The notes: generated by a model from the sequence alone, not told the origin. A DNA stretch of 32,000 nucleotides from Candidatus Electronema aureum (GCA_004284765.1 NQJD01000007.1:1-32000), one strand, 5' to 3'. Positions 11,312-29,324 are shown, numbered from the stretch's first letter. Program-made: numbers and translations.

Positions 11312-13075
11312 TTAGAACACGCCCTTCACCTTGCCGGTCTCCACATCCACATCAATGCGGCGATAGGCGGGATCAGAAGCCGTGCCCGGCATCAGGGTGA
11401 TTGCCCCTGCCACCGGCACGACAAAGCCTGCGCCCTTGTAAGTGAGGATGTCGCGGATGGGCAGCGTCCAGCCTTTGGGCGCGCCTTTCAGCTTCGGGTC
11501 GTGCGAGAGCGAGAGATGCGTCTTGACCATGCAGGTGGTCATCTGCTTCATCTCCGGGTCTGCCTCCAGCCGCTTCAGCTTGGCCTGCGCTTCCGGGGTG
11601 TAGCTCACGCCGTCGCCACCATAGACTTCTTTCACAATCAGCTCGATGCGCTTGGAGAGCGGGGTCTCTAAGTCGTAGAGGAACTTGAAATCGTTCGGCT
11701 CCTCGCAGGCATCAATAACCGCGTCGGCGAACTCCAGTGCCCCGTCGCCGCCGTACTGCCAATGCTTGGACAGCGCCACACGAGCACCCGCTGCCTCGCA
11801 GATCCGGCGCACGGCCTTGGTCTCGTTGTCGCTGTCCGTGTAGAAGGCGTTGATGCAGACCACCGGGTTGATGCCCGCCTTCTTCACGGTCTCAATGTGA
11901 TGAATCAGGTTCTCGCAGCCCTTCTCGACCCAGCCCACGTTCTCGCCTTTGTACTCCTCCGGCATCGGCCGGCCTGGCACAGGGATGGGCGCACCTCCGT
12001 GGCACTTGAGCGCACGGATGGTTGCGACAACTACGGCGCAGTTCGGCTTGAGGCCGGAGTAACGGCACTTGAGGTTCCAGAACTTCTCGAAGCCGATGTC
12101 TGCGCCAAAGCCAGACTCGGTGATGTTGTAGTCTGCCAACTTGAGAGCAACGCGGTCGGCAATGACCGAGGATTGACCAATAGCGATGTTGGCGAACGGC
12201 CCGGCGTGAACAATCACCGGCTGCCCTTCAATGGTCTGCATCAGGTTGGGGTTGATCGCATCCACCATCCACGCAGTCATTGCCCCTGCCACATCCAAGT
12301 CCGTGGCGGTGATCGGCCTGTCTTGCTTGTCATAGGCCATTACCATCCTGCCGATACGCTCACGCATATCTTTCAGGTCTTTGGCAATGGAGAGGATAGC
12401 CATGATCTCGGAGCTAACCGCGATGTTGAAGCCGGACTGCATGGTCATGCCGTCTGAGGTGCCGCCAAGACCGATGGTGATGTTGCGCAGAGCTTGAGCG
12501 CAGTAGTCCATGATCCAGCGGAACTCTACCTTCTTCGGGTGGATGTCGAGACGGCGCAGGCCGCGCTGACTCAGCTGCTCGTCGGTATAGTTGCTCTCAT
12601 GCTGCATACGGGACGTGAGCGCGACCATGCCGAGGTTGTGGGCGTTCATGATCGCGTTGATGTCGCCGGTCATGCCCAGCGAGAAGGGCGTGAGCGGCAC
12701 ACACTGCGACAGGCCGCCGCCTGCTGCCGAGCCTTTGATGTTCATGGTCGGGCCGCCGGATGGCTGACGGATGGCACCAACCACCGACTTGCCGCGCTTT
12801 CCCATGCCCTGCACCAAGCCCATCGAGCAGGTGGATTTCCCTTCACCCAGCGGGGTCGGGGTGATGGCGGTCACATCAATGTACTTGCCGTCGGGCTTGT
12901 CCTTCAGCCGCTCAAGGATGGCGCGGTAGTCCAACTTGGCTAAATAATGACCGTGCGGCAGCAGCTCCTTCTTGTCCAAGCCGAGCTTCTCACTCAGCTC
13001 ATAGACGGTTTTCATGTTGCCTTCAGCGGCTTCAGCGATTTCCCAGTCAGCGTGTTTGGTGGGATCCAAGGGCAT
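11312..13075 (-). CDS. fhs: formate--tetrahydrofolate ligase
   Basis: Full-length (587 aa) match by eye to FTHFS: [56 protein letters not shown]. Confidence 0.95.
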
Positions 13076-13555: not shown

Positions 13556-15016
13556 ATGATTCTGAAAAACACCCACCTGCTTCGTAGCCGCTGCTTTATC
13601 GGCGGCGCATGGACAGACGGCGCGGCAGGGAAAACTATTGAAGTCCGTAATCCCGCTACCGGAGAGCTACTCGGTACGGTGCCATCTTTGGGCCGTGAAG
13701 AAACCCGACAGGCGATTGCCGCCGCCGAAGCAGCGTGGCCCGGCTGGAAAAACCGTACCGCCCATGAGCGCAGCCGCCTCATCCGCCGCTGGTATGATCT
13801 GATCATCGAACATCAGCGCGATCTGGCTGTGATTATGACTGCCGAGCAGGGCAAGCCGCTGGCTGAATCGCTGGGTGAAATACTGTACGGGGCCAGCTTT
13901 GTTGAGTGGTTTGCCGAGGAAGCCAAGCGGGTCTATGGCGACACGATTCCTATGGCTCAACCGGGCAAACGGATCATCGTGATTAAACAGCCGATAGGAA
14001 TCTGTGCCGCAATCACGCCGTGGAACTTCCCTTCTTCCATGATTACTCGCAAGGTCGCCCCGGCTTTGGCCGCAGGTTGTCCGGTGGTAGTCAAGCCCGC
14101 TGCCCAAACGCCTTTCTCGGCCTTGGCCTTGGCTGTGCTGGCTGAGGAAGCCGGACTGCCGCCGGGCGTGTTCAATGTCCTCACTGGCCCAGCGCGAGAG
14201 ATCGGCAGCGAGCTAACCTCCAACCCAGCTGTGCGTAAGCTGAGTTTTACCGGCTCCACCGAAGTCGGCAAGGTGCTGATGCGTCAATGCGCAGACACAG
14301 TGAAAAAAGTCTCATTAGAGCTGGGCGGCCATGCGCCTTTCATTGTCTTTGACGACGCTGATCTGGATGCGGCAGTTGCCGGGGCAATTGCTTCCAAATA
14401 CCGCAATTCAGGCCAGACCTGCGTCTGTGCCAATCGTTTTATTATTCAGAAAGGCATCTATAAGACCTTTGCCGAACGACTGATCAAGGCCGTGACTGAA
14501 CAACTCCGGGTGGGTAATGGTTTTGACGAAGGCGTAACCCAAGGGCCGCTGATTGATCTTAACGCTGTGTTAAAGATGGAGCATCAAATTAAAGATGCGC
14601 TGGATAAAGGGGCGCGTTTAGGTTGCGGCGGCAAGAGGGTGGGCGAGGCAGGCTTTTTCTTTGAGCCGACGGTTCTACTCGACGTGACTCCAGATATGCT
14701 GATCGCCCACGAGGAGACCTTCGGCCCGATTGCGCCGCTCTTCTCCTTTGCTACAGAAGAGGAAGCGGTTGCCTTGGCCAACGATACGCCCTACGGCTTG
14801 GCTTCTTACTTTTTCAGCCGTGACATCGGCAAGTGCTGGCGAGTGGCTGAAAATCTCGAATACGGCATGGTGGGTATCAACACTGGCATTATGTCCACCG
14901 AGTCTGCACCTTTTGGCGGCATTAAGGAATCTGGCATCGGACGGGAAGGTTCAAAGTACGGAATTGAGGAGTATTTAGAGCTGAAATACCTGTGTTTGGG
15001 AGGAATTGAAAGGTAA
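13556..15016 (+). CDS. gabD: NAD(P)+-dependent succinate-semialdehyde dehydrogenase (aldehyde dehydrogenase family)
   Basis: ALDH catalytic blocks ELGGHAP and FRNSGQTCVCANR, plus the GabD-like N-terminus FIGGAWTD...IEVRNPATGE...GTVP. Substrate assignment rests on overall resemblance only. Confidence 0.85.
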   Translation: MILKNTHLLRSRCFIGGAWTDGAAGKTIEVRNPATGELLGTVPSLGREETRQAIAAAEAAWPGWKNRTAHERSRLIRRWYDLIIEHQRDLAVIMTAEQGKPLAESLGEILYGASFVEWFAEEAKRVYGDTIPMAQPGKRIIVIKQPIGICAAITPWNFPSSMITRKVAPALAAGCPVVVKPAAQTPFSALALAVLAEEAGLPPGVFNVLTGPAREIGSELTSNPAVRKLSFTGSTEVGKVLMRQCADTVKKVSLELGGHAPFIVFDDADLDAAVAGAIASKYRNSGQTCVCANRFIIQKGIYKTFAERLIKAVTEQLRVGNGFDEGVTQGPLIDLNAVLKMEHQIKDALDKGARLGCGGKRVGEAGFFFEPTVLLDVTPDMLIAHEETFGPIAPLFSFATEEEAVALANDTPYGLASYFFSRDIGKCWRVAENLEYGMVGINTGIMSTESAPFGGIKESGIGREGSKYGIEEYLELKYLCLGGIER

Positions 15017-15044
15017 TCTGTTAGAGATAACTGCAATCCGTCTC

Positions 15045-16469
15045 ATGAAATCAAAACTGATGATACGTCCTGAAACTCGCTGTATCGTTATCGCCGGTCT
15101 AAGCGGTGGCTCTGGCAAATCGGTGGCTTCAGTCGCGCTGGCGGCGGCATTACGGCAACGCGGCAGCCGGGTAGCACCGTTCAAAAAAGGGCCGGATTAC
15201 ATAGATGCGGGCTGGTTGACAGCGGCTGCGGGTCAGCCCTGCTATAACCTTGATCCGTTCCTGATGAGCGTGGCGGCTGTCGGCGAGTCCTTTCAACGGC
15301 ACGCGGCTGGTGCGGAGTTCGCCCTCATTGAGGGCAACCGGGGACTGTACGACGGCGTGACAGCGGAAGGTGAATTTTCCACCGCAGAATTAGCCGTGTT
15401 GCTGGATGTACCCGTCCTCTTGGTAGTCAATTGCAGCAAAACCACCCGAACAGTGGCGGCGATGGTGCTTGGTTGTCGAGAATTGGACAAGCGGGTGCGC
15501 ATTGCTGGGGTGATCTTGAATCAGATTGCCTCGCCTCGTCACGAGCGGATTATTCGCCAAGCAGTGGAACAGGATACTGGCATCCCGGTGGTCGGAATCA
15601 TCCCACGTTTGGAGAAGGACATTTTCCCCATGCGCCATCTCGGCGTACTTCCGCATCAGGAGTACGGCGACAGCAATGCCGAGGCAGCAGTCAGTCGTTT
15701 GGCCGCGCTGGCTGAGGCGCATTTTGATCTGGACTTGATTGTCCGATTAGCCGCGCCGCGATGTTTTGAACCGCCGTCCGCCTTGCCACAGATCAAGGAC
15801 ACGGAGAACGTGACCATCGGTATCTTGCGCGATGCGGCCTTTCAGTTCTATTATCAGGAAAATCTCGATGCTCTGCGTGAAGGCGGCGCGGAGCTGGTGA
15901 TGATCAACGCTCTGATCGCAGAGCAGCTACCGGAGGGCTTGGATGCGCTTTACATCGGCGGTGGCTTCCCAGAAACTCATGCCCAGCATTTAGGAGAAAA
16001 CGCCTCCTTCCGTACTTCTGTCCGGCAAGCGGCGGAGCAAGGGTTGCCGATCTATGCGGAATGTGGCGGGCTGATGTATCTGGGTCGCTCAATCATTGTG
16101 GACGGCAGCGAATATCCGTTAGTTGGGGTTTTTCCGGTCACATTTACCATGTCGCAGAAACCGCAGGCCCACGGTTATTCTATCTGTACAGTTGAGCAAA
16201 AGAATCCTTTTTATCCGCTCGGAACACAGATCAAAGGACACGAGTTTCGCTATTCAACAGTGGCGAATTGGGACGGTAGGGCAGAGGAGTTGGCTTTGCG
16301 GGTGGAGCGGGGAACAGGTTTTCAGGAAAAACGAGACGGGCTGCGGAAAAACAATGTGCTGGCTCTTTACACCCACGTGCTGGCTCCGGGTGCGCCGGAA
16401 TGGGCGGCAGGACTGCTGCGGGCTGCACAAGATTGGAGAAAAAAAGGCAGGCATTCCAATACGGAATAA
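15045..16469 (+). CDS. cbiA: cobyrinate a,c-diamide synthase family protein (CbiA/CobB/DsrN/CfbB-type tetrapyrrole amidase)
   Basis: N-terminal ATPase P-loop IAGLSGGSGKS. C-terminal GATase-1 domain with YAECGGLMYL and the GHEFRYS block. Start is ambiguous (ATG 15045 or 15060; the TTG at 15006 overlaps gabD). Confidence 0.8.
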   Translation: MKSKLMIRPETRCIVIAGLSGGSGKSVASVALAAALRQRGSRVAPFKKGPDYIDAGWLTAAAGQPCYNLDPFLMSVAAVGESFQRHAAGAEFALIEGNRGLYDGVTAEGEFSTAELAVLLDVPVLLVVNCSKTTRTVAAMVLGCRELDKRVRIAGVILNQIASPRHERIIRQAVEQDTGIPVVGIIPRLEKDIFPMRHLGVLPHQEYGDSNAEAAVSRLAALAEAHFDLDLIVRLAAPRCFEPPSALPQIKDTENVTIGILRDAAFQFYYQENLDALREGGAELVMINALIAEQLPEGLDALYIGGGFPETHAQHLGENASFRTSVRQAAEQGLPIYAECGGLMYLGRSIIVDGSEYPLVGVFPVTFTMSQKPQAHGYSICTVEQKNPFYPLGTQIKGHEFRYSTVANWDGRAEELALRVERGTGFQEKRDGLRKNNVLALYTHVLAPGAPEWAAGLLRAAQDWRKKGRHSNTE

Positions 16470-16476
16470 CCTGCCT
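16438..16476 (-). terminator. intrinsic terminator of the globin gene, overlapping the cbiA 3' end
   Basis: AGGCAGG (16445-16451) pairs with CCTGCCT (16470-16476), with an inner ATTCC/GGAAT extension. On the minus strand it is followed by a T7 run (A-run 16438-16444). Confidence 0.7.
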
Positions 16477-16497
16477 GATTGCTTCTGACAACAGTTA

Positions 16498-17016
16498 TTA
16501 CTTGTTCAGAACATCCTTCCGCACGCTGTTTGCAACATCCGCAGCCTTTTTAATCTGATCATCTTTCACGCCCAGCTCTTTCAGAGCCGCGCCCAAATGC
16601 TCAAGAATAACATCAAAGTGGCTGTCGTTCAGCCCTTTCTGCACTAAATGAGCATGAGCAGTGCGCAGGTCGCGACCGGCATACGCATTAGGGCCACCAA
16701 AGGCAAAGGTCAAAAAAGCCTTCTGCATTGCTCTCTGACGATCCATATCAACCCCTTTGAAAAAGCCGTTGACCCGATCATCAGCCAGCACTTTTTTGTA
16801 GAAAAGATCAACTGCTGCATCAACGGCCTTCTCGCCGCCCAGCTGCTCATACAGGGTCGGTTCAGTAGGCTTTGCTGCTTCTGTCGCCGGAACCTCAATC
16901 TTGGTTTCCGGGGCGGCAGGTGCAACAGCTGCATCTTTTTTCGCAAAGGCGTTATGGCCAACAGCAATGGTCAGAAAAGCTGCTGCGGCTGTTGCTACGA
17001 GAATTGTTTTTTTCAT
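16498..17016 (-). CDS. glbN: group I truncated haemoglobin (trHbN) with N-terminal Sec-type signal peptide and Ala/Pro/Glu linker
   Basis: The globin core LYEQLGGEKAVDAAVDLFYKKVLADDRVNGFF...DMDRQRAMQKAFLTFAFGGPNAYAGRDLRTAHAHL...HFDVILEHLG aligns block by block with cyanobacterial GlbN as I remember it. The N-terminus is MKKTILVATAAAAFLTIAVGHNAFA|KKDAAVAPAAPETKIEVPATEAAKPTEPT. Confidence 0.9.
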   Translation of the reverse strand: MKKTILVATAAAAFLTIAVGHNAFAKKDAAVAPAAPETKIEVPATEAAKPTEPTLYEQLGGEKAVDAAVDLFYKKVLADDRVNGFFKGVDMDRQRAMQKAFLTFAFGGPNAYAGRDLRTAHAHLVQKGLNDSHFDVILEHLGAALKELGVKDDQIKKAADVANSVRKDVLNK

Positions 17017-17145
17017 GAATCAGGCTCCATCTGAGGACATTTTGCCCTCTAAAATTTTGTGAAGCAGTCAGCGACAATATAGCCCGCCGCTTCTTCGTTT
17101 TGATCAGCAGAACATGCTGCGGGAAGAATCATTCCTTCTCAAGAC
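17017..17145 (-). promoter_or_regulatory. conserved leader/promoter block A (upstream of glbN)
   Basis: About 70% identical by eye over ~130 bp to 17723-17861. Contains hairpin 17033-17049 located 17 nt upstream of the ATG. Confidence 0.65.
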
Positions 17146-17249
17146 AAAATGGTATGCTTTAGGCAGAAAAAAGGCAAGGAGGATTTTTTGCAGCTGTGGT
17201 GGAAAGGACTAAAGGAAAGCAAAATAAAGAACGGCAGGGAGGGGAGATA

Positions 17250-17294
17250 CAAAAAACATAGGCGGCAGGCTCATTGTGAGAACCTACCGCCTAC
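17250..17294 (-). terminator. intrinsic terminator of the Ala-rich protein gene
   Basis: TAGGCGGCAGG (17259-17269) pairs with CCTACCGCCTA (17283-17293) with one mismatch. On the minus strand it is followed by TGTTTTTTG. A second small hairpin ATGCCGAA/TTCGGCAT lies at 17309-17330. Confidence 0.75.
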
Positions 17295-17350
17295 GGTGCC
17301 GCACTTCTATGCCGAAAGTTAATTCGGCATGAATATGCAGCCAAAAGATA

Positions 17351-17722
17351 TTACTTCTTATCTGTTGCTTTCTTCTCTTTAGCGGCATCAGCCGGTACAG
17401 CTTCAGCAGCCTGAGCAGCTTCATCAGTGGCAGGTGCAGCCTCAGCAGGTGCAGATTCAGTCTGAGCAGCAGCCTGAGCAGCTTCATCAGTGGCAGGTGC
17501 AGCCTCAGCAGGTGCAGATTCAGTCTGAGCAGCAGCCTGAGCAGCTTCATCAGTGGCAGGTGCAGCGGTAGCATCAGCCGGTACAGCTTCTTCGCCTTTA
17601 ACGGCAGCAGCCTCAGTAGATGCAGCTTCAGCGGTAGCAGCTTCAGGTTTCTTTGCAAAAACGGCATTGCTTGCTGCAACAACGAACAGAGCGGTGGCCA
17701 AGAATAACAGTGCTTTCTTCAT
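17351..17722 (-). CDS. secreted Ala/Glu/Thr/Pro-rich tandem-repeat protein
   Basis: MKKALLFLATALFVVAASNAVFA|KKPEAATAEAA..., with a signal peptide and KK start similar to the globin's. Contains 21-aa repeats APATDEAAQAAAQTESAPAEA. ATG 17722 with AAGGA upstream is preferred over TTG 17728. Confidence 0.75.
   Translation of the reverse strand: MKKALLFLATALFVVAASNAVFAKKPEAATAEAASTEAAAVKGEEAVPADATAAPATDEAAQAAAQTESAPAEAAPATDEAAQAAAQTESAPAEAAPATDEAAQAAEAVPADAAKEKKATDKK
17409..17566. repeat. 63-bp tandem repeat, about 2.5 copies, copies 1 and 2 identical
   Basis: Units start at 17409, 17472 and 17535. Sequence is GCCTGAGCAGCTTCATCAGTGGCAGGTGCAGCCTCAGCAGGTGCAGATTCAGTCTGAGCAGCA. Confidence 0.9.
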
Positions 17723-17861
17723 GATCAAGGTTCCTTGCGAGGGATATTTTTCCCTCTGAAATTTATGAAGCGGTTAACGGCAATCTGCCGATAACTCTTC
17801 GTTTATAGCAGCAGAAAATGCTGTGGGAAAGCGATAGTCTTCCTTAAGAAGAAGGGAATCT
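17723..17861 (-). promoter_or_regulatory. conserved leader/promoter block B (upstream of the Ala-rich protein gene)
   Basis: Paralogous to 17017-17145. Hairpin GAGGGA-TATTTT-TCCCTC at 17739-17756 lies 17 nt upstream of the ATG. A possible -10 (TATAAA on the minus strand) sits near 17813-17818. Confidence 0.65.
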
Positions 17862-18045
17862 TATTCCTTTACGAGAGGAAACGCAAGTATTTTTTTATCC
17901 GTTTTTAACGTGCAAGCTGTTTCTAGCTAACCTATCTTAGCGGCTATGTTTTTCAACTTTTTCAGATACTTTCTGATCGAGCTACCGAAACATAGGGTAA
18001 CAGTGAACCCTGAATGTTATTCGTAAAGAAAACAATTTAAGATGG

Positions 18046-19068
18046 TTAGTGTTGTATCCGTAAATTCCTCTTCTTTTGATAGAGGAACACCGCCCGGTTA
18101 TGCTCCTCCAGTGTGCTGGAGAATTGATGGCTGCCGTCGTTCTTGGAAACAAAGTACAGATACGGCACCTCCGCCGGATGCAGCACTGCCTCCAACGCCG
18201 CCTTGCCGGGATTGCAAATTGGCCCGACAGGCAGGCCGCTGATGGCGTAGGTGTTGTAAGGGGTTGCCGCCAGCAAGTCGGCTTTGGTTAAATTGCCGTT
18301 GAAATCCTTAATGCCGTAGATAGTAGTTGGGTCGGATTGCAGACGCATTCCCGTGCGCAGCCGATTATAAAAGACCCCAGCGATGCTCTTCCTTTCGCTG
18401 GCCGCGCCGGTCTCTTTTTCCACAATCGAGGCCAAGGTGAGGAGCTGATGCCTATTCAGCCCCCTGCTTTCCATTGCTCCCAGTTCCTTCCAGACCGCAA
18501 AAAAACGCCGCACCATCGTGCTGATGATCGTGCGCGCGTCGGTCTCGCCGCGCACAAGGCTGTAGGTCTCAGGGAAAAGATAGCCTTCCAGCGAGGTAGC
18601 TTCAAGTCCCAAGCCTTGGATGAACTGCCTGTCGTGGCAGAGCTGAAGAAAGGCGGCGGTGTCTGTCCAGCCGTCCTTGGCAAAGATTTCCGCAATCTGC
18701 GCCATCGTCAAACCTTCTGGCACTGTCACCCGGTGCTGCACCGGCTTGGCGTTATGCAGGAAGCGGATAACTTGCAGTGGGGTCAGCCCCAGCGGAACGC
18801 TGAATTCTCCTGCCCGCAGCTTGGGTGGGTTCTTCCGTTCAAGCTCTCGCAGCAGGCGCAGCAGCGCGAGAAAGCGGATGTCGTCTTTAATCAGCCCCTT
18901 TTCGCCGAGCAGCGTTTTGATCTGCCGACTGCCCGCGCCTTTGGGAATGTCAACAATCACCTCACCGCTGCCTGGCGCGAGAGTGAAGACATAATAGGCA
19001 AACCAGCCTCCGGCGGCAAAACTGACGAGCAGAAGCAGGGCAAAGAAAACGCGGCAGAAGGTGCGCAT
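18046..19068 (-). CDS. mltG: endolytic murein transglycosylase MltG (YceG family)
   Basis: N-terminal membrane anchor, then YceG blocks ASIVEKETG, AGVFYNRL, MRLQSDPTTIYG, YNTY...GLPVGPICNPG, YLYFVS. ATG at 19068 (a TTG at 19071 is also possible). Confidence 0.9.
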   Translation of the reverse strand: MRTFCRVFFALLLLVSFAAGGWFAYYVFTLAPGSGEVIVDIPKGAGSRQIKTLLGEKGLIKDDIRFLALLRLLRELERKNPPKLRAGEFSVPLGLTPLQVIRFLHNAKPVQHRVTVPEGLTMAQIAEIFAKDGWTDTAAFLQLCHDRQFIQGLGLEATSLEGYLFPETYSLVRGETDARTIISTMVRRFFAVWKELGAMESRGLNRHQLLTLASIVEKETGAASERKSIAGVFYNRLRTGMRLQSDPTTIYGIKDFNGNLTKADLLAATPYNTYAISGLPVGPICNPGKAALEAVLHPAEVPYLYFVSKNDGSHQFSSTLEEHNRAVFLYQKKRNLRIQH

Positions 19069-19391: not shown

Positions 19392-19700
19392 TCATTCCTT
19401 GGTGCCTTCTTTAGCTGCGGCGAAGTATTCTCGGATGGCTTTTATGCCTTTGTAGGCAATCTCTATGGGTGGGGAGGTAAGAGGGTTGCCGTAAAGCCAA
19501 AGCTCTCGTAGATTGGTCAGTTGAACGATCTCTGGCGGCAGGCTGGTAAGGTGGTTGTGGACGAGAGCAAGACAGGTGAGATTGGTGAGCTGAAAGAGTT
19601 CGAGCGGCAGCTCCGTTAATTTTTGGAAGTCAAGATTAAGCTCCGTTGCCCCTGTCTCCGCCGCCTCTTTAATCCGCCGCAACGCTTCTTCTTTGCTCAT
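19392..19700 (-). CDS. leucine-rich-repeat protein (102 aa), probably the surviving N-terminal fragment of a ROCO protein
   Basis: MSKEEALRRIKEAAETGATELNLDFQKLTELPLELFQLTNLTCLALVHNHLTSLPPEIVQLTNLRELWLYGNPLTSPP contains LxxLxLxxNxL repeats. ATG 19700 is preferred. Followed in frame by a Roc P-loop after a TGA. Confidence 0.7.
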   Translation of the reverse strand: MSKEEALRRIKEAAETGATELNLDFQKLTELPLELFQLTNLTCLALVHNHLTSLPPEIVQLTNLRELWLYGNPLTSPPIEIAYKGIKAIREYFAAAKEGTKE

Positions 19701-19736
19701 TGCCTTGTTCCTCCGTGGGCGTTTTTGCCGTGTGGT

Positions 19737-19764
19737 GTATGGGCGATTCGCGAATCGCCCATAC
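19737..19764. repeat. 28-bp perfect palindrome GTATGGGCGATTCGCGAATCGCCCATAC
   Basis: The reverse complement of 19737-19750 equals 19751-19764. It reads GRFANRPY in both directions, which explains the two mirror ORFs in the track (19693-19899 plus strand, 19392-19856 minus strand). Confidence 0.9.
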
Positions 19765-19823
19765 AATGGCTTGTTATGCCTGTGTCCCGCATCCAACCAT
19801 AAGCGCGTGGAAATATCAACAGA

Positions 19824-19847
19824 AGGGACGAAAAATTGTTCGTCCCT
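19824..19847 (-). terminator. intrinsic terminator of the Ni/Co transporter gene
   Basis: AGGGACGAA (19824-19832) pairs with TTCGTCCCT (19839-19847). On the minus strand it is followed by TCTGTTGATATTT. Lies 13 nt after the stop. Confidence 0.6.
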
Positions 19848-19859
19848 ACATCGCACACA

Positions 19860-20798
19860 TCAGAACCAAATGTTCTTCACTGAATGGAACATAGTGTAGG
19901 AGCCGAGAACGATAATCAGCACTGCGCTGGCAATGCTCAACTTTCGGGCGATGTCTAAGTTGTCGCTGATCTTGCCGGTCAGATGACGACTCTGCGACAG
20001 CAGCACGCCAATGGTGATCATTACTCCACCGAGGCCGAGACTGAAGAAAAGAGTAACGCTCAAGCCTTGGGCGATCTTGCCTGCGGCAATCGCAGCAAGC
20101 AGCGTGGCAATGGCTGCGGGGCAGGGGATGAGTCCGCCGGACATACCCAACAGAAGCAGCTCCCATTTGCTTTTCGGTGCGCTCTTGCCGTGGTCGTTGT
20201 GGTCGTGATGGTTGGGTGCGGCAGGTGCAGGATCATGGTGTTCATGGGGATGAGGATGTTCATGATAGCCGCTGCCCTCTCCTTCGTGTTCATGCGGATG
20301 CACATGCGGGTGCTGATGCTCGTGAACATGCTCATGAGGCGGCGGGGTTTCGTGCTGATGATCATGCTCGTTTCCGTCTCTATGTACATGAGGATGCTCA
20401 TGCGGATGATGGTGTTCGTGGCTGTGTTCGTTGTGCGGGTGGTGATGATCATGCCCACTGCCAAAGAGATGAATATGGCCGTGACCTGAACCAGAAAGTC
20501 GCTGCCGTAACATCCAAATACCAACGATCAGAATCAGCGCAGCAGAGAACAGACCTAACCAGTTGTGCAGCACTTCGTCCGAGTAGGTCTTGGAGAGCAG
20601 CATCGCCACCAGACCAAGTAGGATGACGCTGAAGGTATGGGTGATAGTAACGATAGTGCCGAGCAGCACACCGTCCCAAGCCCGGCCTCTGGTGCCGACC
20701 ATATAGGCTGCGATCAGGGTCTTGCCGTGACCGGGTTCAAAGGCATGAAATGCGCCGAGGATAATCGCCCCAGAATACAGTGTAAACAGCGTGGTCAT
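19860..20798 (-). CDS. RcnA/NicO-family nickel/cobalt transporter with very long His-rich loop
   Basis: N-terminal HAFEPGHGKT motif characteristic of the RcnA/NicO family. About six hydrophobic segments. The central ~100-residue loop has about 39 His (my count), e.g. HDHHHPHNEHSHEHHHPHEHPHVH. Confidence 0.8.
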   Translation of the reverse strand: MTTLFTLYSGAIILGAFHAFEPGHGKTLIAAYMVGTRGRAWDGVLLGTIVTITHTFSVILLGLVAMLLSKTYSDEVLHNWLGLFSAALILIVGIWMLRQRLSGSGHGHIHLFGSGHDHHHPHNEHSHEHHHPHEHPHVHRDGNEHDHQHETPPPHEHVHEHQHPHVHPHEHEGEGSGYHEHPHPHEHHDPAPAAPNHHDHNDHGKSAPKSKWELLLLGMSGGLIPCPAAIATLLAAIAAGKIAQGLSVTLFFSLGLGGVMITIGVLLSQSRHLTGKISDNLDIARKLSIASAVLIIVLGSYTMFHSVKNIWF

Positions 20799-28154: not shown

Positions 28155-29324
28155 TTACACCAATTCTGCCATCGCTGTATTCGCTAACAGTAATCCCTGC
28201 TCAGTCAAACGCAGCTGCCTGTCAACAATAATTTCCAGCATTCCATGTTGGATAAGTTGTACCAAAGTTGTGCCATAATATATCTCAGCATCAATCCCAA
28301 AACGGCGGCGTAGTTCTGGCAACGAAACCCCTGCTGTCATTCGCAGACCCATAATCACGGTTTCCCGAAACGCCGCTTCCGGCTCTAAACGTTCCTCGTC
28401 CTGCCAAACCGTTTGCCCGTTCTCCATCAGCTGGCAAAACGCTCCCACATCAGCTACCGCATTGCGCCGGATTCCACCGAGACAAGAAACCGCACCTGGC
28501 CCCAAGCCGATGTACTCGCCATTCTGCCAATAATTGATATTATGATGACACTCAAAGCCGGGAAGTGCATAATTTGATATCTCGTAGCGGCAGAAGCCTG
28601 CGCCACGCAGCATCCGTTGTGTTTCTTCCAGCATTCGCAGTACGGTGTCTTCGTCAGGCAGCGGCAGACCGCCTTGCGCGTGCTGGCGAGCAAAGGGCGT
28701 GTCGTGCTCAATAGTTAGCTCGTATAGGGAAAGATGCTGCGGTGTTAAGGCTAACGTCTGCGCTAAACTGTCCTGCCAAGTTTGCAGCGTCTGACCGGGC
28801 AGGCCGTACATTAAGTCTATGTTGATATTGGTAAAACCAGCCTGACGTGCCAAATGCGCCGTTTGTATCGCATCAGTCGCGGAATGCGGACGACCTATTC
28901 GCCGCAGTTCTCGATCATGCAAGGATTGTACCCCGATGGACAAGCGGTTAAAGCCAGCTTGCCGCAGCATATTCAGACCATAGAAATCAACTGTGGCCGG
29001 ATTGACCTCAATGGAAATTTCCGCGTCTTCAGCGCAGGGGAAGTGCTGGCGGCATTCGGCGAGCAAGCTGCTCAAGGCCGCAGGTGGCAGCATAGTGGGT
29101 GTGCCTCCGCCAAAGAAAATGCTGGTCAGCGGGCGGGTGTAGTATTCGCCCTGATTGGACGGGCGATCACCAGGATCGCCCCTACGGGAAAACTGGCGAA
29201 TTTGCCGGGTGACAGCGGCAAGGTAGCTGCTGTAGTCGTAATAGCCTGCTTCGGAATAAAAGCTGCAATAGGCACACTTCCGCAGGCAGAAGGGTACATG
29301 GAGGTAGATGCCCAAATTATCCAT
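28155..29324 (-). CDS. hemW: radical SAM family haem chaperone HemW (HemN-like, oxygen-independent coproporphyrinogen oxidase family)
   Basis: YLHVPFCLRKCAYCSF (CxxxCxxC), GGGTP, and the HemN C-terminal domain. The ~389-aa size fits HemW rather than HemN. Confidence 0.85.
   Translation of the reverse strand: MDNLGIYLHVPFCLRKCAYCSFYSEAGYYDYSSYLAAVTRQIRQFSRRGDPGDRPSNQGEYYTRPLTSIFFGGGTPTMLPPAALSSLLAECRQHFPCAEDAEISIEVNPATVDFYGLNMLRQAGFNRLSIGVQSLHDRELRRIGRPHSATDAIQTAHLARQAGFTNINIDLMYGLPGQTLQTWQDSLAQTLALTPQHLSLYELTIEHDTPFARQHAQGGLPLPDEDTVLRMLEETQRMLRGAGFCRYEISNYALPGFECHHNINYWQNGEYIGLGPGAVSCLGGIRRNAVADVGAFCQLMENGQTVWQDEERLEPEAAFRETVIMGLRMTAGVSLPELRRRFGIDAEIYYGTTLVQLIQHGMLEIIVDRQLRLTEQGLLLANTAMAELV

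Follow-up and report, generated by a model that had tools for sequence, protein, structure and literature searches.

A 32,000-nucleotide stretch of the Candidatus Electronema aureum genome (GCA_004284765.1 NQJD01000007.1:1-32000, referred to in its entirety as the window) carries on its minus strand a gene for a 172-residue truncated haemoglobin (trHb), in which a signal peptide (residues 1-25) and a linker (residues 26-52) precede a group I 2-on-2 globin domain (residues 53-172; Table 1). An identical 172-residue globin is encoded on OW818638.1 (GCA_942492785.1; 2,938,053 bp). Our analysis makes it highly likely that this is an exported group I trHb (trHbN) of a cable bacterium, and the predicted features as a whole are probably best explained by a stand-alone periplasmic group I trHb with O2 chemistry; the role itself, in O2 reduction or O2 handling, is proposed tentatively. 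The initial annotation of the window had presented a periplasmic globin in an organism with otherwise anaerobe-like genes as physiologically interesting, but the implied novelty is not borne out, as the cable-bacteria literature already contains this candidate O2 reductase. The finding is a correct rediscovery: the protein is annotated, and since 2019 a periplasmic location has been predicted for it and discussed. To this the present analysis adds proof of the start codon, the monocistronic unit, an invariant Met at position E10, the missing equivalent of a haem-linking histidine (His117 of Synechocystis GlbN) and the relation of the protein to the globin domains of cable-bacterial cytochrome fusions.

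As judged from sequence and predicted structure, the C-terminal domain is a 2-on-2 globin of group I (TrHbN-1), in agreement with the trHbN core recognised in the initial annotation. Residues 54-170 match the Pfam family Bac_globin (PF01152; 1.2e-20, 74.3 bits versus a cutoff of 21), and sequence matches in the PDB are strongest to group I proteins (Synechocystis GlbN, 1.4e-35; Tetrahymena trHb, 7e-34; Chlamydomonas THB1, 2e-29; Mycobacterium tuberculosis HbN, 1e-18), whereas group II (O) chains reach merely 1e-4 to 1e-6. An NCBIfam search gave no match for the globin or for the neighbouring upstream protein. An AlphaFold2 (AF2) model of the protein built with nine orthologues, a predicted and not a solved structure, has mean predicted local confidence (pLDDT) values per 10-residue block of 63-94 in the globin region, mostly 80-94 with a dip to 63 at approximately residues 111-120, and places helices at residues 55-59, 62-78, 83-86, 91-105, 115-126, 131-147 and 152-170. 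Searched with Foldseek, this model first retrieves THB1 (6cii) and the Tetrahymena trHb (3aq5) with target-normalised template modelling (TM) scores of 0.84-0.85, and every one of the top 33 matches is a group I trHb. The AB (G60 G61) and EF (G107 G108) Gly-Gly motifs both occur in the sequence and, like the proximal histidine (H121), Y73 and Q98 of the haem pocket, are invariant across the orthologue alignment. The whole protein is devoid of Cys, CXXCH and RR motifs, its first Arg occurring not before residue 81, and haem would be bound non-covalently because neither Cys nor CXXCH is available. Covalent haem attachment was rejected for the known modes, as CXXCH is absent and the segment containing His117 in GlbN is deleted.

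The region ahead of the globin displays the tripartite pattern of a Sec/signal peptidase I substrate, that is, a positively charged n-region, an uncharged, hydrophobic h-region ~10-16 residues long, and positions -3 and -1 occupied by small, neutral amino acids. Two lysines (K2 and K3 of an MKK start) are followed by 16 uncharged residues (T4-V19), with Kyte-Doolittle means over 9-residue windows peaking at ~2.0-2.4, and by a Gly-His-Asn-Ala-Phe-Ala c-region with Ala at both -3 and -1 (A23-F24-A25 before K26). The MKK start, the hydrophobic core and an (A/V)FA site are kept in eight orthologous protein clusters that are 74-94% identical overall, and the Sec-type signal peptide proposed in the initial annotation is upheld by these features. 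The predicted mature protein would begin with a peptide starting at K26 or D28, e.g. DAAVAPAAPETK. In the 27-residue linker, originally described as rich in Ala, Pro, Glu and Thr, the composition count (A8 K4 P4 E4 T3 V2 D1 I1) confirms that description and finds Lys likewise abundant; the globin starts at approximately P53/T54. Linker length and sequence vary among orthologues, the conserved part being only an AKPxEP(S/T)LY junction. In comparisons with five orthologous genes, synonymous differences equal or exceed non-synonymous ones in the signal peptide codons (e.g. 8 versus 5 and 11 versus 5), whereas for the linker codons four of the five comparisons give at least as many non-synonymous as synonymous differences, as expected for a translated and selected signal followed by a fast-evolving disordered spacer. 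The AF2 model has pLDDT values below 50 across residues 1-50, which comprise the signal peptide and nearly all of the linker. Among the best 120 database homologues, 111 are tandem di-globins of ~250-300 amino acids with Lys at E10 and no signal peptide, and our signal peptide heuristic flags the 172-residue globin and none of these 111 proteins. Two other export classes were considered and rejected: Tat substrate, as the MKK n-region contains no twin-arginine motif (as also noted initially), and lipoprotein, as a protein lacking Cys can have no lipobox. The earlier statement that characterised bacterial trHbNs are generally described without signal peptides is fair, since a family-wide trHb survey (PMC4720485) mentions neither signal peptides nor the periplasm; a literature search pairing trHbN with signal peptides returned nothing relevant.

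The same architecture of signal peptide, linker and globin was found in nine other cable-bacterium genomes (L001-L008, L012) in a scan of relatives that sampled one genome per species and comprised 52 loci, at which ORFs were reconstructed. Genomes with the stand-alone exported globin belong to Electronema spp., Electrothrix aarhusensis and a Desulfobulbaceae metagenome-assembled genome (MAG). Full-length matches in the scan come from Electronema and Electrothrix genomes only, and most of the remaining loci encode no signal peptide. The nearest named protein, at 94% identity, is that of 'Desulfobulbus sp. F5', which is Ca. Electronema nielsenii F5. Closed genomes have been reported for Ca. Electronema aureum GS and Ca. 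Electronema halotolerans (PMC10030654), the closed MAG of the latter being OW818675.1.

Cable bacteria also encode paralogous globin domains fused to multihaem cytochromes. At three loci (L009-L011) a signal peptide and a short linker are followed by the same globin, a cytochrome with five CXXCH motifs and a second, C-terminal globin, while at a fourth (L013) the signal peptide precedes the cytochrome and the globin comes last. These pentahaem fusions are ~830-890 residues long, and the globin domains of L009, L010 and L013 are 75-80% identical to the stand-alone globin. Since c-type cytochromes mature only after Sec export, it is in the periplasm that the fusion globins must acquire their fold and their haem b. 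The earlier suggestion that the stand-alone protein would be exported as unfolded apoprotein, with haem b inserted outside the cytoplasm, is strengthened by the existence of such globin-pentahaem cytochrome fusions behind signal peptides. The fusions at L009-L011 and L013 are the lPHCtX or tHgb-PHC proteins of the literature, described as large pentahaem cytochrome (PHC) fusions (Kjeldsen et al. 2019, as cited in PMC11976967, PMC7875522 and PMC13047784), and the GS fusion TAA74525.1 appears in the supplement of the lPHCtX/tHgb-PHC paper. A neighbour-joining tree places the cable-bacterial domains together inside a group with Met at E10; monophyly of these domains is not established because bootstrap support is just 15% and one Oligoflexales sequence falls within the cluster.

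On the reading that we favour, the precursor would be exported unfolded via Sec and cut by signal peptidase I after Ala25 to give a soluble protein of ~15.9 kDa, composed of a flexible 27-residue tail and the 2-on-2 globin. In the periplasm the globin would hold a non-covalent haem b by means of His121 (F8), with Tyr B10, Gln E7 and Gln E11 providing the usual O2 hydrogen-bonding set of TrHbN-1. Electrons could be supplied by periplasmic c-type cytochromes or by the PHC family, and the globin would bind and reduce O2, contributing, at the filament's cathodic end, to O2 chemistry in the periplasm as an unfused equivalent to the globin domains of tHb-PHC proteins. Cable bacteria reduce O2 very rapidly, mostly without a canonical terminal oxidase, and according to the literature on them all cable bacteria encode a periplasmic trHb, proposed to be the O2 reducer, with a second, separate trHb gene in some genomes. 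The cytochrome-trHb fusions have been described as unique to cable bacteria and proposed as periplasmic terminal oxidases (Kjeldsen et al. 2019, as cited in PMC11976967 and PMC7875522). A literature search joining cable bacteria and truncated haemoglobin found no biochemical characterisation of the protein.

Several points weigh against a stand-alone periplasmic trHb with O2 chemistry. The O2-reductase hypothesis of the literature centres on the fused tHb-PHC and not on the stand-alone copy, and the activity precedent on which it draws, the trHb of Bacillus subtilis, is a distant group II relative of the protein studied here (1ux8, 22% identity). The gene context (a cobB-like gene in convergent orientation, mltG/YceG and a secreted protein of low complexity) offers no hint of function, and the signal peptide was called from rule-based features and conservation.

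Periplasmic NO detoxification is a possible, though unlikely, alternative to O2 reduction, in which the oxy-ferrous globin would turn NO into nitrate or act on NO or nitrite in some other way, shielding periplasmic redox proteins during the dissimilatory reduction of nitrate/nitrite to ammonium (DNRA) or near the oxic-anoxic interface. It would suit a group I globin that retains Tyr B10 and Gln E11, the pair on which the ligand chemistry of M. tuberculosis HbN, an NO dioxygenase, depends. It would also suit the nitrate reduction of Ca. Electronema aureum, which proceeds via periplasmic NapAB and a multihaem cytochrome (PMC10030654). However, NapAB has been reported in only two cable-bacterium species (PMC10030654) and a trHb in all cable bacteria, and an O2-linked role is favoured over a nitrate-linked one for this reason. 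NO dioxygenation would moreover require O2 and a reductase in the same compartment, and no nitrogen-cycle genes were found near the globin gene.

The residue at E10 bears on a further alternative, namely that the protein is an electron carrier and not a catalyst, Met97 giving a His-Met six-coordinate ferrous haem b or a switch between a closed carrier form and an open O2 form. All 19 cable-bacterial globin domains examined, stand-alone and fused, have Met at E10, the position of an iron ligand (His46) in GlbN, and the E10 residue 'may coordinate the heme iron' in a hexacoordinate complex that aids electron transfer (PMC11904497). When Met is introduced at E10 of THB1, K(E10)M, it ligates ferrous but not ferric iron (Nye et al. 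2019, as cited in PMC11904497), whereas the TrHbN of Shewanella benthica, with a natural Met at E10, is five-coordinate when reduced (PMC11904497); the Soret band of its deoxy form lies near 433 nm. Nor is this residue special to exported globins: in the 149 closest 50%-identity clusters (376 domains) E10 is Met in 42 domains (11%), Lys in 123 and His in 51, and relatives lacking a signal peptide in the Desulfuromonadales, Ketobacter/Pseudomonadales and Oligoflexales have Met as well. Met E10 was accordingly rejected as a signature of exported globins, and a pure carrier role appears rather improbable to us.

It is conceivable, if hardly probable, that ligand switching and catalysis are combined, with Met97 acting as a redox-linked sixth ligand in the ferrous resting state of a His-Met b-type 'cytochrome' that would draw electrons from the network of periplasmic cytochromes and fibres, and in which O2 would then displace Met and be reduced. 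The stand-alone protein might then be a diffusible catalytic module of a terminal oxidase, and exported or lipid-anchored trHbNs might constitute an unrecognised extracytoplasmic class of O2/NO-reactive globins. Were this true, the protein would offer an easily purified catalytic module of the cable-bacterial terminal oxidase, and the class would take in the exported and lipid-anchored trHbNs of Verrucomicrobiota, Lentisphaerota and other metagenomic clusters.

A soluble protein is also expected over one held by an uncleaved signal anchor, with the linker tethering the globin to the periplasmic face of the inner membrane. A long flexible linker behind a hydrophobic segment does resemble a tether, but anchoring seems quite improbable given that the uncharged stretch (T4-V19) spans only ~16 residues and that Gly-His-Asn comes next, ahead of a canonical A-x-A site, retained as (A/V)FA by orthologues, at which the (-3,-1) rule favours cleavage.

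Translation of the ORF agrees with the N-terminus quoted in the initial annotation, which gave no strand, and its start codon is unambiguous. Among codons 1-60 none but the first is ATG, GTG or TTG, and an in-frame stop lies two codons 5' of codon 1. The earlier observation that no Met occurs between residue 1 and the globin fold is thus correct and extends to GTG and TTG, and because codons 2-60 contain none of the three, a canonical downstream start would delete helices A and B. Orthologues begin at the same MKK. It is therefore extremely improbable that the N-terminal extension is an annotation artefact of a cytoplasmic globin with a downstream start, an idea favoured only by the general rarity of signal peptides among characterised trHbNs and countered by the lack of alternative start codons, by the conservation of the signal peptide at the protein level and by a GGAG motif at the correct spacing ahead of codon 1; for canonical starts an artefact, already thought unlikely in the initial annotation, is excluded.

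Whether the signal peptide is specific to the cable-bacterial clade had been posed as a question initially, and uniqueness to cable bacteria was rejected on heuristic evidence, the crude heuristic flagging 15 of the 149 representative trHbN clusters. N-termini resembling signal peptides or containing a lipobox occur on non-cable group I trHbs at seven loci (L039, L041-L043, L046, L051 and L052) and in five proteins (P0168, P0199, P0224, P0245 and P0246), a hint that exported trHbNs exist beyond cable bacteria. A literature search found no discussion of exported or lipoprotein trHbNs outside cable bacteria. In Verrucomicrobiota proteins the globin comes after a signal peptide and a small YHS-like domain rich in Cys (a match to PF04945 below the Pfam cutoff), a Lentisphaerales protein combines signal peptide and globin, several metagenomic trHbN proteins have lipoprotein-type signals, and in P0199 a signal peptide is combined with a multihaem domain resembling cytochrome c554 and with a globin. 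The closest non-cable homologues form the di-trHbN family, found in Gallionella, Neptuniibacter and many MAGs and having N-termini that are short, e.g. MGCFFSKLKGLFGG or MFGFLKKLFGGG. Poly-globins, in which a single chain holds as many as 13 trHbN domains, were also observed (P0121: 1882 residues, 12 Pfam-scored stretches). Three Met-E10 trHbNs of ~300-370 residues (P0182, P0263 and P0265) have N-termini that look CheW-like by eye (e.g. YLTFVVNDEEYGVDILRV), which hints at globin-chemotaxis fusions.

Table 1. Features of the exported globin gene and of its surroundings, in window coordinates
Feature	Coordinates	Strand	Codons	Basis or remarks
Complete CDS, stand-alone exported group I truncated haemoglobin	16498..17016	minus		172 aa + stop, ATG start; end coordinate includes stop
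Predicted Sec/signal peptidase I signal peptide MKKTILVATAAAAFLTIAVGHNAFA	16942..17016	minus	1-25	predicted cleavage after A25 (between AFA and KK); hydropathy, charge, conservation
Low-complexity Ala/Pro/Glu/Lys/Thr linker KKDAAVAPAAPETKIEVPATEAAKPTE	16861..16941	minus	26-52	27 aa
2-on-2 globin domain	16501..16860	minus	53-172	Pfam, PDB matches, AF2 model, alignments
Pocket residues (GlbN numbering): B10 Tyr73, CD1 Phe86, E7 Gln94, E10 Met97, E11 Gln98, F8 His121				GlbN alignment
Met at E10	16726..16728	minus	97	alignment to 1s69/2hz2
Proximal His (F8)	16654..16656	minus	121	GlbN alignment, cable-bacterial domain comparison
GGAG Shine-Dalgarno-like motif	17025..17028	minus		8 nt upstream of globin ATG
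Probable intrinsic terminator of globin gene	16438..16476	minus		GC-rich hairpin then U7; -22.3 kcal/mol, z = -4.2, 0/200 shuffles as stable
Intrinsic terminator of upstream gene	17257..17295	minus		16-pair stem then T-run
cobB/cbiA-like amidase	15006-16469			convergent with globin gene
fhs	11312-13075			in window
hemW-like radical-SAM gene	28155-29324			in window
Small leucine-rich-repeat protein	19392-19856	minus		~3 kb from globin
NicO-like nickel-transporter / DsbD_2 membrane protein	19860-20798	minus		~3 kb from globin

The globin gene appears to be monocistronic, as intrinsic terminators bracket it on both sides. Part of its own probable terminator hairpin falls within the final codons of the cobB-like gene that converges on it (stop at 16469), and because of this overlap one palindrome may serve both converging transcripts. 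An operon with the upstream gene for a secreted repeat protein was rejected, a strong terminator separating the two genes, and a sigma-70 promoter scan of 16300-18100 detected none. The globin/cobB arrangement is conserved in four other Electronema loci. Both fhs and a hemW-like gene, cited initially as anaerobe-like gene content, were found in the window, which also encodes an aldehyde dehydrogenase, mltG/YceG, a LysR regulator, a hybrid sensor kinase and amtB. The NicO-like neighbour is of interest because the fibres of cable bacteria carry a Ni cofactor (PMC12093952).

The upstream gene (17351-17722, minus strand) encodes a second predicted exported protein, with a signal peptide, MKKALLFLATALFVVAASNAVFA followed by KK, that resembles that of the globin. 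The remainder of this protein is acidic (pI ~4), low-complexity and rich in Ala, Pro, Glu and Thr, and has no Pfam or NCBIfam match; its gene contains a perfect tandem repeat (63 bp x2.6) at 17404-17566 and has its own strong terminator. The public call of 144 residues (L053 2232-2666, compared with window 17351-17785) would cross an in-frame TAA that the window contains, and a start at ATG 17722 is more likely than the public one. A tblastn search with this repeat protein found no orthologue owing to its low complexity, but reading of ORFs uncovered one with (APAEA)n repeats in Ca. Electronema nielsenii F5 (L001 3092-3391); Electronema sp. PJ (L006) does not have the protein at this position.

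In the literature, truncated haemoglobin is the leading candidate for the periplasmic protein behind cable-bacterial O2 chemistry, and the Cys-free, monocistronic gene described here would be the simplest experimental handle on the tHb O2-reductase hypothesis. The stand-alone globin should be far easier to express, load with haem and test electrochemically than the pentahaem fusions. By its predicted export it also provides a clear example from nature of a 2-on-2 globin whose haem b would have to be acquired outside the cytoplasm, and our survey suggests that exported 2-on-2 globins are not confined to cable bacteria.

Loading of a b-type haemoprotein outside the cytoplasm is exemplified by cytochrome b562 of Escherichia coli, which is small, soluble and periplasmic, is synthesised with a Sec signal peptide that can be cleaved off and binds haem b non-covalently with His/Met axial ligands. 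It is a mechanistic analogue only, being a four-helix bundle with no globin pocket and no O2 chemistry, and no homology is claimed. Among globins, HbN of M. tuberculosis (1idr) shares group I membership, Tyr B10 and Gln E11 with the Electronema protein at ~33% identity, but contains a pre-A motif of 12 residues and lacks a Sec signal peptide, and its E7 residue is Leu where the cable-bacterial globin has Gln. Chlamydomonas reinhardtii THB1 (4xdi, 6cii) is the top structural match (target-normalised TM 0.84) and likewise a TrHbN-1, with an iron-ligating E10 side chain; it differs in being eukaryotic, in lacking a signal peptide and in having Lys as its natural ligand, and is 42% identical. The best solved sequence relative is GlbN of Synechocystis sp. 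PCC 6803 (1s69, 2hz2, 1mwb), with ~56% identity over residues 54-171 and identical residues at B10 (Tyr), CD1 (Phe), E7 (Gln), E11 (Gln) and F8 (His). GlbN, a chain of 123-124 residues, has neither signal peptide nor linker, its sixth ligand His46 is replaced by Met in the exported globin, and its His117, which forms a covalent haem link, lies in the short segment deleted here.

The closest comparison is with the fusions of the cable bacteria themselves. The O2-reductase proposal was formulated for these proteins, the stand-alone copy being in the literature merely 'a second gene', and the gene described here differs from them in being unfused and monocistronic and in the composition of its linker, which is rich in Ala, Pro and Glu rather than in Gln, Asn and Gly. 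In the same organisms, however, the fusions have a signal peptide, a short low-complexity linker and a trHbN at the N-terminus, and their haem pocket is the same, with Tyr B10, Gln E7, Met E10, Gln E11 and His F8.

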